In this document: positions 52,318 through 64,000 of the stretch, in pieces
Position numbering within the stretch: the first letter of the stretch is position 1
Layout of the letters: every line of letters begins with the position of its first letter
Origin: Escherichia phage UPEC06
Reading direction: 5' to 3' (one strand)
Sequence record: MW250786
Length of the DNA stretch: 64,000 nt
Position numbers and translations under genes: made by a program
Notes under the pieces: model-generated
The model's input: only the letters and a program-made list of their open reading frames with translations
Database searches by the model: none
What the model was told of the DNA's origin: nothing

Positions 52318-52392
52318 GGCCCTGTAGCTGGACGGTTCAAGCAAGCGACTCATAATCGCCAGACGGTGGTTCGATTCCACCCAGGGCCACCA
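52318..52392 (+). tRNA. tRNA-Met (anticodon CAT; could be initiator, elongator or Ile-lysidine type)
   Basis: Acceptor ggccctg/cagggcc, anticodon loop ctCATaa, T-arm ggtgg-ttcgatt-ccacc, discriminator A, encoded CCA. Confidence 0.7.
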
Positions 52393-52525
52393 TATGAAGT
52401 CGGGTCGCTCCCGATAAGTCGTCGGACTGATGTTCCCTGACTACGAGTTCCCTCAACGATAACGACGTAGATCACAGCAGAAACGGCGCACCCTATTTCA
52501 TTTCTTAATACATTTCAATAAGTTC

Positions 52526-52554
52526 TTGACATAATCCTATTATACTGCTAATAT
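52526..52554 (+). promoter_or_regulatory. Sigma70-type promoter: -35 TTGACA, 17-bp spacer, -10 TAATAT
   Basis: TTGACA at 52526-52531 and TAATAT at 52549-52554. Confidence 0.6.
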
Positions 52555-52581
52555 AGTTATATCTACTGAATTGAGGTGTTT

Positions 52582-52956
52582 ATGGCTAAAGCTGAAATCG
52601 TTACTCGAAAACGCGGTCGGCCTACTACAGAGGAAAGCATTGCAATCAATACTGAGAGAGCAATTCTTCATGCTCGTTCCGAGTTTGCAAGACTTACTCC
52701 TCAAGCAATTAAAACTCTGGAAGGTCTACTGACTTCCGGTACAGAGAAAGTTAAAGAAACTACTGCGAAGTATATTCTTGAGCAAGCTGAAAAGGCAAAC
52801 AATCTGTACACGATGGAAGATAATGAAGAGGATCTGGCAGGAGGAACTACTTCTGCAAATTCAGAAACTCATCAAGGCCCTTCTGACGCATTTAAGGATG
52901 CTATTCCATTAACTACTCAGATTCGTGAGTATAAAATGGCAGAAGGTGAAGATTAA
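52582..52956 (+). CDS. small basic-N-terminus, acidic-C-terminus protein; possible DNA-binding protein or terminase small subunit
   Basis: ATG at 52582 with a GAGG RBS; KRGRPT motif; function not established. Confidence 0.5.
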   Translation: MAKAEIVTRKRGRPTTEESIAINTERAILHARSEFARLTPQAIKTLEGLLTSGTEKVKETTAKYILEQAEKANNLYTMEDNEEDLAGGTTSANSETHQGPSDAFKDAIPLTTQIREYKMAEGED

Positions 52957-52976
52957 GGCTCGCAAGGGCCTTTATT
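52955..52976 (+). terminator. Possible terminator hairpin (GCAA tetraloop) after the 52582-52956 gene
   Basis: Stem aaggctc/gggcctt with gcaa loop followed by tttatt. Confidence 0.35.
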
Positions 52977-53210
52977 AAGAAGTTTTCTTTAAGGTAGTTC
53001 TTACTTTAGCAGAGTAAATCTTCGGCAAGTGGCGGTAACCACTTTACCGATACCTCATAGTTAGTGTTGCGAACACTGGCTACCTTAAAGAGAATTTAAC
53101 TCGTCGAATAAGGAAGATGCTGATCTCAAAGTGAGGTTACTTACCGCAAGGGGTGTGCATAGACTCCCGCTTCCGAATAGACTATGTGGCGAGATGTATT
53201 TGGGGACGTA

Positions 53211-53561
53211 ATGAATAATAAAGACCAAGGTAATGCAGGAGAGGCGTTTGCCATCTATCATTACACCTCATCAGGCCACAAGGTGTCAAAGCCGTTGTTT
53301 GAAAACTGCCCATACGACCTTATCGTTGATAAAGACGGTTGTTTGTTAAGGGTACAAGTTAAAACATCGCGTGTCAAAGCGCCAAGTGGAAGGTATGAGG
53401 TTTCTTTGAGGACCAACGGTGGTAACCGAAGTGGTATAGGAAAGAGCAAAAATATCTCAAGCTCGGAAGTAGACCTACTTTTCGTTCTTATTGAAGACGG
53501 GAGGTATTTTGAAATCCCTTGCTCAGAGGTAGATGGTCAGACTTGCGTGACCGTAGGATAA
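53211..53561 (+). CDS. restriction-endonuclease-like (PD-(D/E)XK-type) nuclease, possible homing endonuclease inside the tRNA island
   Basis: GEAF..YDLIVDKDG..RVQVKTS resembles E...PD...(E/Q)VK; ATG at 53211 with a GGGGA RBS. Confidence 0.35.
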   Translation: MNNKDQGNAGEAFAIYHYTSSGHKVSKPLFENCPYDLIVDKDGCLLRVQVKTSRVKAPSGRYEVSLRTNGGNRSGIGKSKNISSSEVDLLFVLIEDGRYFEIPCSEVDGQTCVTVG

Positions 53562-53562
53562 G

Positions 53563-53649
53563 GCATTGTTAGACCGTAGGGGTAGCGGGGCAGACTGTAA
53601 ATCTGCTGTTCATAGAACTCGGGTGGTTCGACTCCATCACAATGCACCA
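53563..53649 (+). tRNA. tRNA-Tyr (anticodon GTA), type II with a long variable arm
   Basis: Acceptor gcattgt/acaatgc, anticodon arm gcaga-ctGTAaa-tctgc, 15-nt variable arm, T-arm ggtgg-ttcgact-ccatc, discriminator A, CCA. Confidence 0.65.
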
Positions 53650-53652
53650 AAT

Positions 53653-53727
53653 TTTCCGTTAGGCTTATAGGATAAGATTCCCGCAACGTCTCGTTGTGAT
53701 ACTGGTTCGAATCCAGTACGGAAACCA
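53653..53727 (+). tRNA. tRNA-like element: perfect acceptor stem and T-arm, no canonical anticodon arm
   Basis: tttccgt/acggaaa acceptor and actgg-ttcgaat-ccagt T-arm; the middle does not fold into a standard D/anticodon arm by eye. Confidence 0.3.
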
Positions 53728-53733
53728 AATTAA

Positions 53734-53815
53734 TGTGCGGGTAACATAATTGTCACGGTGGCAAGCTGGCCTCCAAAACCAGTCGTAAGGAGTTCGACTC
53801 TTCACCTTCACGCCA
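53734..53815 (+). tRNA. tRNA-like element, possibly tRNA-Trp (CCA anticodon loop ctCCAaa) with an over-long D region
   Basis: Acceptor gtgcggg/ccttcac (1 mismatch), anticodon-like loop ctccaaa, T-loop ttcgact, discriminator G, CCA; 82 nt. Confidence 0.35.
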
Positions 53816-53819
53816 AATA

Positions 53820-53896
53820 CGGTGTATAGCGCAACTTGGTAGCGCGAATGCTTTGGGAGCATTAGGTTCGAGGTTCAAATCCTCGTACACCGACCA
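53820..53896 (+). tRNA. tRNA-Pro (anticodon TGG)
   Basis: Cloverleaf folded by eye: C1-G72, D-arm gcgc/gcgc, anticodon arm aatgc-ttTGGga-gcatt, T-arm cgagg-ttcaaat-cctcg, discriminator A, CCA. Confidence 0.75.
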
Positions 53897-53901
53897 AATA
53901 T

Positions 53902-53977
53902 GCGGGTATAGCTCAGTTGGTAGAGCTTCTGATTTCCAATCAGAATGTCACGAGTTCGAGTCTCGTTATCCGCTCCA
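53902..53977 (+). tRNA. tRNA-Gly (anticodon TCC)
   Basis: gcgggta acceptor, D-arm gctc-agttggta-gagc, anticodon arm tctga-ttTCCaa-tcaga, T-arm acgag-ttcgagt-ctcgt, discriminator U, CCA. Confidence 0.8.
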
Positions 53978-53985
53978 AACAAAAA

Positions 53986-54060
53986 TGGGGATTAGCCAAG
54001 CGGTAAGGCATTGGATTTTGATTCCAACATTCACTGGTTCGAGTCCAGTATCCCCAGCCA
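53986..54060 (+). tRNA. tRNA-Gln (anticodon TTG)
   Basis: U1-A72 acceptor tggggat/atcccca, anticodon arm ttgga-ttTTGat-tccaa, T-arm actgg-ttcgagt-ccagt, discriminator G, CCA. Confidence 0.75.
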
Positions 54061-61191: not shown

Positions 61192-61221
61192 AAAGGTCAC
61201 CTTCGGGTGGCCTTTTTTATT
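61192..61221 (+). terminator. Intrinsic terminator after the major capsid gene
   Basis: Hairpin aaaggtcacc-ttcg-ggtggccttt followed by ttttttatt. Confidence 0.8.
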
Positions 61222-61300: not shown

Positions 61301-61894
61301 ATGTCTAAGCAAACTCACTTGGAAATTTTTAAAAGTGAATATCACATGCTCAAGTTCTTCGGTGAATATCTAGAAAAGCTTGATGTAAACACCTCTGCAC
61401 GTTTAGGTGCATTCCTTTACAGCTACGACGGAAAACTAGTCCTTGCCCGTGGCCTTTATGATTTTCTAACTCAAATGGAAAAGATGACCGCTCTCGGTAT
61501 CGACACCCTTGCTTCTGTGCAAAAAGGTACAAGTTTCCTAGTATTCTTTAAAGAGAAGCCTAAAGATCCTTTAAAATTCCGTTTGGATGTTAAGAAAATT
61601 GAGGCTGTCAAAGAAGCCATTGTTACTGATACTCCAACTAAGGTAATGGAAGAGTCTGTACTTGTCAACACTAAAGTTGAAGAAGTTAAAGAAGTTGAAG
61701 TAAAGGAAGAATTAACTGCTCGTACTGAAGAAGAAAAATCTCAGATCTTAGCCAAGGCTGAAGAACTGCGTGACGACAGCAAAAAGTCTGCATCTAAGGC
61801 GGCATTGGAAGCTTTCGCTGTGGAATACGGCATTTCACTGAGCAAAGGTAAAACCTTTGATGGGATGCTTGAAGATTTAGCTGCTGCACTTTAA
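61301..61894 (+). CDS. hypothetical protein (Lys/Glu-rich middle region)
   Basis: 197 aa; GAAGGAG RBS. Confidence 0.55.
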   Translation: MSKQTHLEIFKSEYHMLKFFGEYLEKLDVNTSARLGAFLYSYDGKLVLARGLYDFLTQMEKMTALGIDTLASVQKGTSFLVFFKEKPKDPLKFRLDVKKIEAVKEAIVTDTPTKVMEESVLVNTKVEEVKEVEVKEELTARTEEEKSQILAKAEELRDDSKKSASKAALEAFAVEYGISLSKGKTFDGMLEDLAAAL

Positions 61895-61905: not shown

Positions 61906-61921
61906 GCCCCTGTTCAGGGGC
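61906..61921 (+). terminator. Weak hairpin (gcccc-tgttca-ggggc) after the 61301-61894 gene
   Basis: Stem-loop without a strong U-run. Confidence 0.25.
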
Positions 61922-61946
61922 TTAAATCCCTAGGAGAATTTTATAA

Positions 61947-64000
61947 ATGGCTGAATATAATGATAAGGTCGTGGAAGCATTCGTTACTGCTCCTGATCCT
62001 GTCGTAACTACCACTGGTGGTGGAGTTATTTTTAACGGTATTGAAACGGAAGATACTGTATCTACCCTGTTAGTTGGTAATGGTACTGCCTCTTCCCCTC
62101 TGCAAGCTCAAGTTAAGCTATCTCGCCGTGCAGGTAACGCCCTGACTCTGGTTCAGACTGATAACGAGGAAGGCTTGTTTGCTTCCGCTGGAGATGCTAA
62201 AGTATCTACCTCTCAGGCGAACGTTGCAAAATACGTCACTGCGGAAGAAGCTGCTGCTCAAGGTGATGCCAGTTTGGAAGGTGTTCTGGTTGAGCCAGTT
62301 CATGCTACCACTACCGCTGTTGGTGACGCACTGGAAATTACCGCAGATCCTCTGGTTGCTAAAAACTCCCGTATATCCCTGAAAGTTTCCACCTCTTCAA
62401 CTAACGCTTTGTCTGTAGACCCTGATGGTTTGGCAGTTAAAGTTTCCCCCGCTATCGACAACAGCTTGCAAGTTCGTGAAGGTGCACTGTATGTAGCTCC
62501 AGTTGGTGCTGACATTTCTCAAGATGCAGGTAACAAACTGGAACAACGTTCAGATGGTCTGTTTGTAGAAACCATCAAAGGTGACAAAGGCGATCAGGGT
62601 GAACAAGGACCAGCAGGTCCACAAGGCCCAGCCGGAGAAACTGGACCTGCTGGCCCGCAGGGTGAAAAAGGGGATAAAGGGGATACTGGAGAAGTCGGTC
62701 CTGCTGGCGCAACTGGACCTATCGGTCTGACTGGCGCAACTGGCCCTCGTGGTGTAGAAGGTCCTCGTGGCCCTGCTGGTATTGGTATCAACATCCTCGA
62801 CACCTTGGCATCTGAAGATCAATTGCCTTCTGTTGTTGATCTTGCGAATGGTGATACATACGTAATCGGACAGAGTTTCTTTACCGTTATCACTGAAGGT
62901 GGTATCAAACAATGGAGAAACGTAGGTAACTTCGCTGGACCTGAAGGTCTTTCTGCATTTGAAGTTGCTGAAACCGCAGGCTTTGTTGGAACAGTCGATG
63001 ACTGGTTGGCTACCCTTCGTGGTGCTGACGGTATAGGTCTGCAACTCCTTGGTTCTTTCCAGCGTATCGAAGATCTTCCTCAAGAAGAGAACAAACCTGG
63101 TGATGCCTACATCATTCAAGAAAAGATGTATGTTTGGACTGGTGATACAGATGGCTGGCAACCTGTAGGACAGATCGGTCCTGAAGGTCGTTCTGCTTAT
63201 CAGGTCTGGCTGGCTAACGGGAACGTAGGTTCTCAGCGTGAATTCCTTGAATCACTGAAAGGTGAGAAAGGTGATACTGGCGATCAGGGTCCTCAGGGTA
63301 TCCCAGGTGCAGATGGTAAAAATGCTAACGCCATTAATATCTTAGGTTCCGTTGCAGATCAGGCGAGTTTGCCAGAAGGTGCAGATGCAGGTGATGCTTA
63401 CCTGATCGGTACTAACGTATTCGTTTCTGATGGTGCTGGCAACTGGCAAGACTTGGGATCTTTCCAAGGTCCGCAAGGTCCTACTGGTGCTAAAGGCGAC
63501 AAGGGTGACAAAGGGGACAAAGGGGACAAAGGCGATAAAGGTGATGACAACTATGCCATCGCAGTTGCTAACGGTTTCCAAGGATCAGTAAATGAATACC
63601 TTGCATCTATCAAGGGTGAGAAAGGTGACGTTGGTGCAACTGGCCCTCGTGGATTGGCTGGTCCACAAGGTGAACAAGGTCCTGTTGGTGCGGGTCTGAA
63701 TATCCTTGGCTCAGTAGCTTCCGAAGATCAATTACCTCAGACTGGTATTAGTGAAGGTGACGCTTATCTGATTGAAGCTGATCTTTATATCTTCACTGGC
63801 GGTCAGTGGACTAACGTTGGTAACATCAAAGGTCCTCAGGGTGATATTGGTCCTGTAGGTCCACAAGGTCCTATCGGCTTGACTGGTGCACAGGGACCGC
63901 AGGGTGCAACAGGAGCACAAGGCCCTGCTGGCCCACAAGGTGAGACGGGTCCACAAGGTGGTATCGGTCCACAGGGAGAAACTGGAGAGAAAGGCGATAA
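61947..64000 (+). CDS. collagen-like repeat fiber protein (partial; continues past the window end)
   Basis: ATG at 61947 with an AGGAG RBS; open frame to position 64000; G-X-Y tracts (GDKGDQGEQGPAGPQGPAGETGPAGPQGEKGDKGD; GDKGDKGDKGDKGDKGD) alternate with four copies of a ~45-aa NILGSVA..EDQLP..GDAYLI module. Confidence 0.75.
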   Translation, partial: MAEYNDKVVEAFVTAPDPVVTTTGGGVIFNGIETEDTVSTLLVGNGTASSPLQAQVKLSRRAGNALTLVQTDNEEGLFASAGDAKVSTSQANVAKYVTAEEAAAQGDASLEGVLVEPVHATTTAVGDALEITADPLVAKNSRISLKVSTSSTNALSVDPDGLAVKVSPAIDNSLQVREGALYVAPVGADISQDAGNKLEQRSDGLFVETIKGDKGDQGEQGPAGPQGPAGETGPAGPQGEKGDKGDTGEVGPAGATGPIGLTGATGPRGVEGPRGPAGIGINILDTLASEDQLPSVVDLANGDTYVIGQSFFTVITEGGIKQWRNVGNFAGPEGLSAFEVAETAGFVGTVDDWLATLRGADGIGLQLLGSFQRIEDLPQEENKPGDAYIIQEKMYVWTGDTDGWQPVGQIGPEGRSAYQVWLANGNVGSQREFLESLKGEKGDTGDQGPQGIPGADGKNANAINILGSVADQASLPEGADAGDAYLIGTNVFVSDGAGNWQDLGSFQGPQGPTGAKGDKGDKGDKGDKGDKGDDNYAIAVANGFQGSVNEYLASIKGEKGDVGATGPRGLAGPQGEQGPVGAGLNILGSVASEDQLPQTGISEGDAYLIEADLYIFTGGQWTNVGNIKGPQGDIGPVGPQGPIGLTGAQGPQGATGAQGPAGPQGETGPQGGIGPQGETGEKGD

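Follow-up and report, generated by a model that had tools for sequence, protein, structure and literature searches.

A modular collagen-like virion fibre encoded between the capsid and neck genes of Escherichia phage UPEC06, with a possible place on the tail

At its 3' end, a 64,000-nucleotide (nt) stretch of DNA from Escherichia phage UPEC06 (sequence record MW250786; this whole stretch is called the window below) carries a long open reading frame (ORF) which almost certainly encodes a trimeric collagen-like fibre of the virion, orthologous to the protein W70_131 of phage W70. The gene is ordinary and was already known: near-identical genes have been deposited and annotated, and orthologues have been confirmed in virions by proteomics. 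Its interest rests on location and on a possible capsid-ornament cassette. We favour a location on the tail, where the fibre would be a third, accessory, long-reach and flexible one, and we regard this placement as an even call.

The ORF occupies positions 61947-64000 of the plus strand, with 684 codons and no stop from its ATG to the end of the window. A first-pass annotation, made from the letters alone, had described an open frame leaving the window here, and this holds: the start is preceded by a ribosome-binding site, and the window carries 54% of the gene as it stands in Escherichia phage vB_EcoM-LTH01 (LTH01), whose homologue of 3,801 nt and 1,266 amino acids (aa) is annotated as a "tail fiber protein". 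A frameshift or stop breaking the long frame, which that annotation had named beforehand as evidence against the gene, was not found; the frame is intact in Septuagintavirus and in more distant genomes, and it is kept open over 1,263-1,266 codons in five independent genomes. The last 4.3 kb of the window share 96.9% nt identity with LTH01 and 93% with phages A5-4, A73, W70, and A7_1, the phages that define the genus Septuagintavirus of the Vequintavirinae (PMC11370258), and by this measure the window is the DNA of a Septuagintavirus myophage of E. coli. At the protein level, the fibre fragment is 97% identical to the LTH01 protein (WWT49288), 95% identical to the proteins of A5-4 (UZZ64188) and W70, and 55-62% identical to proteins of the genus Certrevirus, while its N-terminal 211 aa are 99.5% identical to LTH01 and 90% identical to W70 and A5-4. 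W70_131, WWT49288, and UZZ64188 represent the same gene in the same position with the same domain order, and only point differences separate them from the part in the window. The fibre protein matches phrog_3904, "tail fiber protein", with an E value of 2e-142. Four minus-strand ORFs in this span (62300-62515, 62550-63161, 63342-63581, and 63732-63956) were tested and none has a PHROG match, in keeping with their earlier description as antisense artefacts.

Proteomics of two relatives identifies the product as a virion component. W70_131 (129 kDa, phrog_3904) has the top spectral count, 2,032, among the 28 virion proteins of W70 and gives a visible band in sodium dodecyl sulfate-polyacrylamide gel electrophoresis; the W70 authors list it as a "virion structural protein of unknown function". 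Its Certrevirus orthologue CB7_10 was found in virions with 39 unique peptides and 46% coverage, and the CB7 authors took it to be a tail-fibre or host-recognition candidate on account of its collagen domain. We rejected spectral counts as an estimate of copy number, being non-linear; per kDa, they would put the sheath below the portal.

These proteomes also bear on the reading that the frame is no real gene, or is a bacterial collagen-like adhesin gene carried as cargo. NCBIfam models of Lcl, SclA, and SclB do match the protein (E 1e-50), but they reach 171-175 bits against curated cut-offs of 325-500, and what they match is G-X-Y composition only. With the frame kept in many phage genomes and the product detected in virions, the W70 and CB7 proteomics refute this reading, to which we leave next to no chance. 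The likeness to Bacillus BclA (matched in our PDB search through entry 1wck), streptococcal Scl1/Scl2, Legionella Lcl, and the collagen-like tail-fibre proteins of E. coli prophages described by Ghosh et al. 2012 (cited in PMC7344957) consists of hydroxyproline-free, charged G-X-Y tracts flanked by non-collagen trimerisation domains. However, the similarity to these bacterial and prophage proteins is compositional, and the non-collagen modules, the N-terminus, and the C-terminal tip are unrelated.

Within the window, collagen-like G-X-Y tracts alternate with other modules, as the first-pass annotation had seen. Five uninterrupted tracts of 7-23 triplets make up 201 residues, or 29% of the fragment, whereas in 1,000 shuffled versions of this protein such tracts held 7 residues on average and 51 at most; the Pfam Collagen family (PF01391) matches with 81 bits against a cut-off of 27.2. 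The perfect (GDK)5 run and the four copies of a ~45-aa module were also found as described, the copies being 34-54% identical to copy 1 and following the pattern ..ILG.....LP....GD.Y.I.......G..W..VG; we call this the beta module. Two further repeats were absent from the earlier description. The first is a 29-aa repeat with the consensus G.SAY.VA..GF.G...E.L.SLKG.KG, present in three copies, and the second is a ~20-aa motif of the shaft, S....N.L....DGL.V, with four copies in aa ~55-210. The features of the fibre gene, all on the plus strand, are the following:

61932-61937 (plus strand): ribosome-binding site AGGAGA, 9 nt 5' of the fibre ATG, read from the sequence
61947-62141 (plus strand): conserved N-terminal segment, aa 1-65
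62142-62579 (plus strand): beta-rich shaft, aa 66-211
62580-62786 (plus strand): collagen tract 1, aa 212-280, 23 triplets
62787-62927 (plus strand): beta module copy 1, aa 281-327
62946-63032 (plus strand): 29-aa repeat copy 1, aa 334-362
63039-63170 (plus strand): beta module copy 2, aa 365-408
63186-63272 (plus strand): 29-aa repeat copy 2, aa 414-442
63261-63323 (plus strand): collagen tract 2, aa 439-459, 7 triplets
63333-63458 (plus strand): beta module copy 3, aa 463-504
63468-63548 (plus strand): collagen tract 3, aa 508-534, 9 triplets, including (GDK)5
63495-63539 (plus strand): (GDK)5 run, aa 517-531
63540-63626 (plus strand): 29-aa repeat copy 3, aa 532-560
63615-63695 (plus strand): collagen tract 4, aa 557-583, 9 triplets
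63696-63821 (plus strand): beta module copy 4, aa 584-625
63831-64000 (plus strand): collagen tract 5, aa 629-684 and beyond, ended by the window; 23 triplets in the full-length homologue

Repeats at the DNA level occur only in the G-X-Y tracts, and the beta modules repeat at the protein level only, which marks the beta modules as old duplications. The DNA of the (GDK)5 run is a 9-bp tandem array (63492-63541, plus strand) of 5.6 copies, a number equal to that in LTH01, and slippage there could plausibly make its length vary. The 29-aa SAY repeat is widespread among fibre-like proteins elsewhere, and when aa 281-440 were used as a query, the matches shared this repeat only and not the beta module. 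The shaft motif, too, recurs many times in other fibre proteins, which are matched in multiple stretches.

We described the part beyond the window from the LTH01 homologue. The layout continues there: another four collagen tracts and another four or five modules bring the totals to nine tracts and eight or nine modules; together with the phrog_3904 match and the presence of orthologues in virions, this bears out the beads-on-a-string fibre architecture proposed from the window alone. Three tandem foldon-like motifs follow (e.g., EAPRDGNQYVRKDGAW). Their identity to the T4 foldon is 41-52%, the A-P, Y, R, W, and L positions do not vary, and the Pfam family Fibritin_C matches the full-length homologue with 39.7 bits against a cut-off of 21. 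The C-terminal end is a tip domain of ~100 aa. From the sequence and these foldon-like trimerisation motifs, we infer a homotrimeric triple helix. The closest full-length match of the search was modelled over its C-terminal 269 aa; in this structural model, the beta module has four strands with predicted local distance difference test (pLDDT) values of 65-87, and the tip has values of 62-86. Profile-profile comparison gave no support for reading the ~45-aa module as an expanded foldon (probability 5%). The tip retrieved 119 BFVD matches with E<1e-3, which lie at the C-terminal ends of fibre proteins from podo-, sipho-, myo-, and jumbo phages, and judging by these matches it is a common distal fibre domain.

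Collagen rises 0.286 nm per residue. On this basis, the 387 residues of the full-length homologue that lie in G-X-Y tracts would give ~110 nm of collagen, and with nodes, shaft, and tip the fibre would measure roughly 150-180 nm. It is thus probably longer than the tail, which measures ~120 nm in W70 (PMC11370258).

The sequence, read alongside established collagen and foldon biochemistry, suggests how such a fibre may assemble. The C-terminal foldon-like repeats and the tip domain would nucleate the trimer, after which the hydroxyproline-free collagen tracts would zip from the C- to the N-terminus, stabilised by KGD/KGE charge pairs such as those of (GDK)5. At the interspersed beta modules and 29-aa repeats, the three chains would come back into register and the fibre would bend as at a hinge. 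It would be anchored to the particle through the N-terminus, of which aa 1-65 are presumed to be the virion-attachment end, with the C-terminal domain lying distally.

Orthologues outside the genus are phiTE_215 and CB7_10 in Certrevirus and PVP-SE1 gp068 and 4MG gp067 in Seunavirus, which share the cassette described below, the N-terminus, the modules, the foldon-like motifs, and the tip. They are shorter (1,099, 918, and 875 aa), with fewer modules and collagen tracts, and the Seunavirus fibres have one or two foldon-like motifs where LTH01 has three. Compared to phiTE_215 and PVP-SE1 gp068, respectively, the LTH01 protein is 63% and 44% identical over aa 1-70, 56% and 36% over the rod, 63% and 51% over the foldon region, and 62% and 52% over the tip. 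The first 65 residues are the sole N-terminal part shared with the Seunavirus fibres, which are without aa ~66-155 of the shaft. A relative of 510 aa (P0008) keeps both ends and has no collagen. Conserved ends joined by a variable rod indicate that the ends are the functional parts and that the rod of collagen and modules is a swappable spacer of variable length. Two other relatives (P0002 and P0023) have five or six tandem foldon-like repeats ahead of the tip domain, and we found no description of arrays of foldon units in the phage literature covered here. A word-indexed protein search with the N-terminal 211 aa returned no matches, while an exhaustive HMMER search with aa 1-211 found 54 matches among 1.8 billion representatives; since only 8 clusters reach E<1e-30, the N-terminal region defines a narrow family.

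The tail placement draws mainly on the cryo-electron microscopy (cryo-EM) atlas of phiTE, in which a short and a long tail fibre were modelled on the baseplate wedges and a "third putative fiber", close to the network of baseplate fibres, was left unmodelled (PMC11972413). The long tail fibre is thought to bend toward the capsid and to contact this third fibre (PMC11972413). The same study modelled the connector whole (portal, adaptor, and head-completion protein as well as terminator) with no collar or whiskers, and in the capsid it described only the major capsid protein (MCP), the decoration protein, and an unmodelled, hexamer-centred "Pagoda" density (PMC11972413). In NC_020201, the record cited by the phiTE study, only phiTE_215, phiTE_236, and phiTE_241 are annotated as tail fibre proteins. 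phiTE_236, with its immunoglobulin domains, fits the modelled short fibre and phiTE_241 fits the long one; with these two accounted for, phiTE_215 would be the third fibre. Among solved chains, the only one with similarity to the N-terminal region is gp015, the long tail fibre of phage 7-7-1 (PDB 9RKV chain M, residues 92-215, against aa 4-127 of the query), in a weak match (E 6e-4) to a generic shaft motif. The 7-7-1 long tail fibre is a baseplate-anchored trimer, but its beta-helix and jelly-roll tip are unrelated to the fibre here and the match is not clearly to an anchor. As to role, the protein would be an accessory long-reach fibre, with which the phage first and reversibly touches the cell or its appendages, and not the receptor-binding protein that sets host range, because the tip is conserved across Escherichia, Pectobacterium, and Salmonella phages.

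Several points weigh against this placement. The identification of the "third putative fiber" with phiTE_215 proceeds by elimination, and our PDB sequence searches found no orthologue modelled in any entry. AlphaFold2 gave an unusable prediction for aa 1-215 (8 sequences, pLDDT 39). The gene itself belongs to the head-neck block, a long way from the genes for the baseplate fibres, and its cassette is bounded by terminators and ends with a slot that is filled by the Pagoda candidate in phiTE and by a PHROG "head fiber" protein in Seunavirus. W70_131 gave about twice as many spectra as the 112-kDa baseplate fibre W70_107, which hints at more than 18 copies, although such counts are clearly non-linear. 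The T4 neck whisker is the best-known source of foldon units. Finally, averaging could have removed a thin and flexible collagen fibre from the capsid or neck maps if it is anchored with a symmetry mismatch. The caution of the first-pass annotation, which had left head and tail both possible, was justified given that W70_131 is listed with "unknown function" and that the phiTE study modelled no orthologue.

If the fibre does belong to the tail, it might instead be the primary, host-range-determining receptor-binding fibre, such as the flagellum-binding fibre of the group. The labels in GenBank and PHROGs ("tail fiber protein") would agree with this, as would the naming of CB7_10 as a host-recognition candidate by the CB7 authors and the occurrence of the tip as the end domain of numerous phage fibres, including one that bears the label "major tropism determinant". 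These labels are automatic and uncurated, however, and the tip is 52-62% identical across Escherichia, Pectobacterium, and Salmonella phages, i.e., it is conserved like the rest of the protein, unlike typical receptor-binding tips. Additionally, the Septuagintavirus paper places tail-fibre diversity in other proteins (PMC11370258), and the phiTE authors argue that the short tail fibres first contact the flagella (PMC11972413). We consider a primary receptor-binding role improbable.

A second alternative to the accessory tail fibre is a neck whisker, an analogue of T4 fibritin that would attach at the head-tail connector, hang along the sheath, and meet the long tail fibres, thereby giving the "third fiber" density. 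The tandem foldon-like motifs and the Fibritin_C match argue for it, as does the gene's position, with the neck and head-completion genes a short way downstream. At ~150-180 nm, the fibre would be long enough to reach along a tail of ~100-120 nm. According to the phiTE authors, the long fibre bends capsid-ward to the third fibre, and the D3 domains of the sheath interact with fibres (PMC11972413). Yet neither a collar nor an extra ring was reported for the phiTE connector, which was resolved and modelled with C6/C12 symmetry (PMC11972413); this tells against a whisker, if not decisively for a flexible fibre. A foldon is a generic trimerisation unit, uninformative on attachment. T4 fibritin (wac) resembles our protein in being a segmented trimeric fibre with a foldon-type unit, but its rod is an alpha-helical coiled coil where the rod here consists of collagen and beta modules, and the foldon-like motifs here stand in tandem (three, with up to five or six in relatives), ahead of a further ~100-aa domain. 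Outside the foldon, no PDB or Pfam match to fibritin was found, and there is no similarity to its rod or N-terminus or to the collar and whisker proteins of Bas63, Sf14, and phiKZ. The Bas63/Sf14 collar-whisker proteins and the phiKZ gp34 whiskers, tried as candidates, have no relation to the fibre, and collagen and foldon go unmentioned in both papers. Overall, we judge a neck whisker to be decidedly unlikely.

The genomic context bears on these placements. Upstream of the fibre, the window encodes the large terminase, the portal, an XkdF-type protease, a 364-aa protein (phrog_2970), a head decoration protein, and an E-type MCP. The capsid and decoration proteins match chains of PDB 9CUL/9MJN with E values of 5e-204 and 2e-51; these are entries of the phiTE cryo-EM atlas (PMC11972413). 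The fibre gene does lie 3' of the MCP gene, as first described, but it does not directly adjoin the capsid genes, as two features stand in between:

61192-61215 (plus strand): strong intrinsic terminator with a 10-bp stem and a T-run, 3' of the major capsid gene
61301-61894 (plus strand): first cassette gene, 197 aa (phrog_3259; PHROG E 9e-49), 53% identical to phiTE_214

A terminator is annotated in phiTE at the position matching 61192-61215, and a second annotated terminator closes the cassette in that phage. With a terminator following the MCP gene, the fibre cassette begins a separate transcription unit. Its order is the phrog_3259 gene (~190 aa in Certrevirus and Seunavirus), the long fibre, a gene of phrog_4998 (~214 aa in those two genera), and a variable last slot, and it is kept between the MCP and neck genes in Septuagintavirus, Certrevirus, and Seunavirus, three genera of the Vequintavirinae. 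The fibre locus, after the MCP and phrog_3259 genes and before the neck genes, is the same in the window, LTH01, A5-4, phiTE, PVP-SE1, 4MG, and Serratia phage ChuuTotoro; in ChuuTotoro the fibre position is kept and other genes occupy the phrog_4998 position. Phage phi92 is without the cassette, its MCP gp124 being followed by the adaptor gp126, and the phi92 atlas thus gives no placement information.

The phrog_3259 gene was kept in every cassette examined, and the C-terminus of the 197-aa protein matches a "head protease inhibitor" PHROG weakly. Neither the W70 nor the CB7 virion proteome contains an orthologue, so the protein is probably non-structural and possibly an assembly factor. Between this gene and the fibre ribosome-binding site lies a G+C-rich hairpin, GCCCCTG..CAGGGGC (61906-61921, plus strand), which has no T-run and was not called a terminator. 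The phrog_4998 protein, directly 3' of the fibre gene (212 aa; LTH01 L001:18094-18732), is a virion component (W70_130, CB7_11). It is 40% identical to its counterpart in phiTE and 36% to that in PVP-SE1, below the fibre tip (62% and 52%), with the N-terminal half better conserved, and it is a candidate fibre partner or adaptor. It has no PDB, Pfam, or NCBIfam match, and when the two small neighbouring proteins were searched against PDB sequences, nothing above chance level came up.

Last in the cassette, ~0.75 kb downstream of the complete fibre gene, LTH01 encodes a second collagen-like protein of 565 aa (L001:18745-20442), whose counterpart W70_129 is, like the phrog_4998 protein, also in the W70 virion (728 spectra). 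The same slot holds phiTE_217, the Pagoda candidate, in phiTE and an 84-99-aa protein matching "head fiber" PHROGs in Seunavirus. The three last-slot proteins share an N-terminal pattern of ~35 aa, and phiTE_217 and the LTH01 collagen protein both match phrog_21621, so Septuagintavirus capsids might carry collagen-like head fibres.

The cassette is an argument for placing the long fibre itself on the head, as a trimer on capsid vertices or capsomers. There it would form a long filament like the capsid fibres of the flagellotropic phages 7-7-1 and phiCbK, catching flagella or surface polymers and bringing the tail near the cell. The gene lies between capsid and neck genes, in one cassette with the Pagoda candidate phiTE_217 and the "head fiber" PHROG protein of Seunavirus; certreviruses with an orthologue (phiTE, CR3) need flagella, on which the 7-7-1 capsid fibres act; and both the very high spectral count of W70_131 and an estimated length exceeding that of the tail would suit such a filament. 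In contrast, the 3.6 Å map of the phiTE capsid describes no vertex fibre, and the Pagoda was assigned to pTE217 by abundance, with an exponentially modified protein abundance index (emPAI) of 79,432 against 533 for the next unidentified protein (PMC11972413). By these emPAI values, pTE215 is therefore not present at a hexamer-like copy number. No head-fibre family (PHROG 14753/4366/20838; phi29 gp8.5 type) appears in the best 25 of the 57 PHROG matches of the long fibre, nor in Pfam; the small last-slot protein of Seunavirus is the only one to match them. The fibre is carried by PVP-SE1 and 4MG, two phages for which we found no evidence of flagellotropism. A head fibre is thus an unlikely placement in our estimation. 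In a broader and still doubtful version of this idea, the fibre would not belong to the baseplate; the cassette would be a capsid/neck "ornament" module and the fibre a collagen "fishing line" of more than 150 nm at the head or neck. With the second collagen-like protein in the Pagoda slot, these coliphages would have collagen-haired capsids that capture flagella or mucosal or host surface polymers.

Two side observations concern genes further upstream. The XkdF-type prohead protease gene (Pfam PF14550; 57994-58611, plus strand) has as its best PHROG phrog_1530, "DNA methyltransferase" (E 1e-51), a label that misleads for this gene. Upstream of the terminase, at 52318-54060 on the plus strand, lie five tRNA genes: Met, Tyr, Pro-UGG, Gly-UCC, and Gln-UUG. 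The collagen fibre is enriched for Gly, Pro, and Gln, which take up 18%, 6%, and 6% of its codons, but a supply of the fibre by the Gly(UCC), Pro(UGG), and Gln(UUG) tRNAs is unsupported, as its codons are mainly GGT (64%) and CCT (62%), like those of other structural genes.

Of the large structural proteins, this fibre alone was left without a place in the phiTE structural atlas, though by spectral count it is among the most abundant. Its modular rod, built of short collagen tracts, beta modules, 29-aa repeats, and tandem foldons, is a template for hydroxyproline-free collagen fibres of defined length. Knowledge of its anchor and ligand would complete the adsorption model of these phages, which are biocontrol candidates against Pectobacterium, Cronobacter, Salmonella, and E. 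coli.

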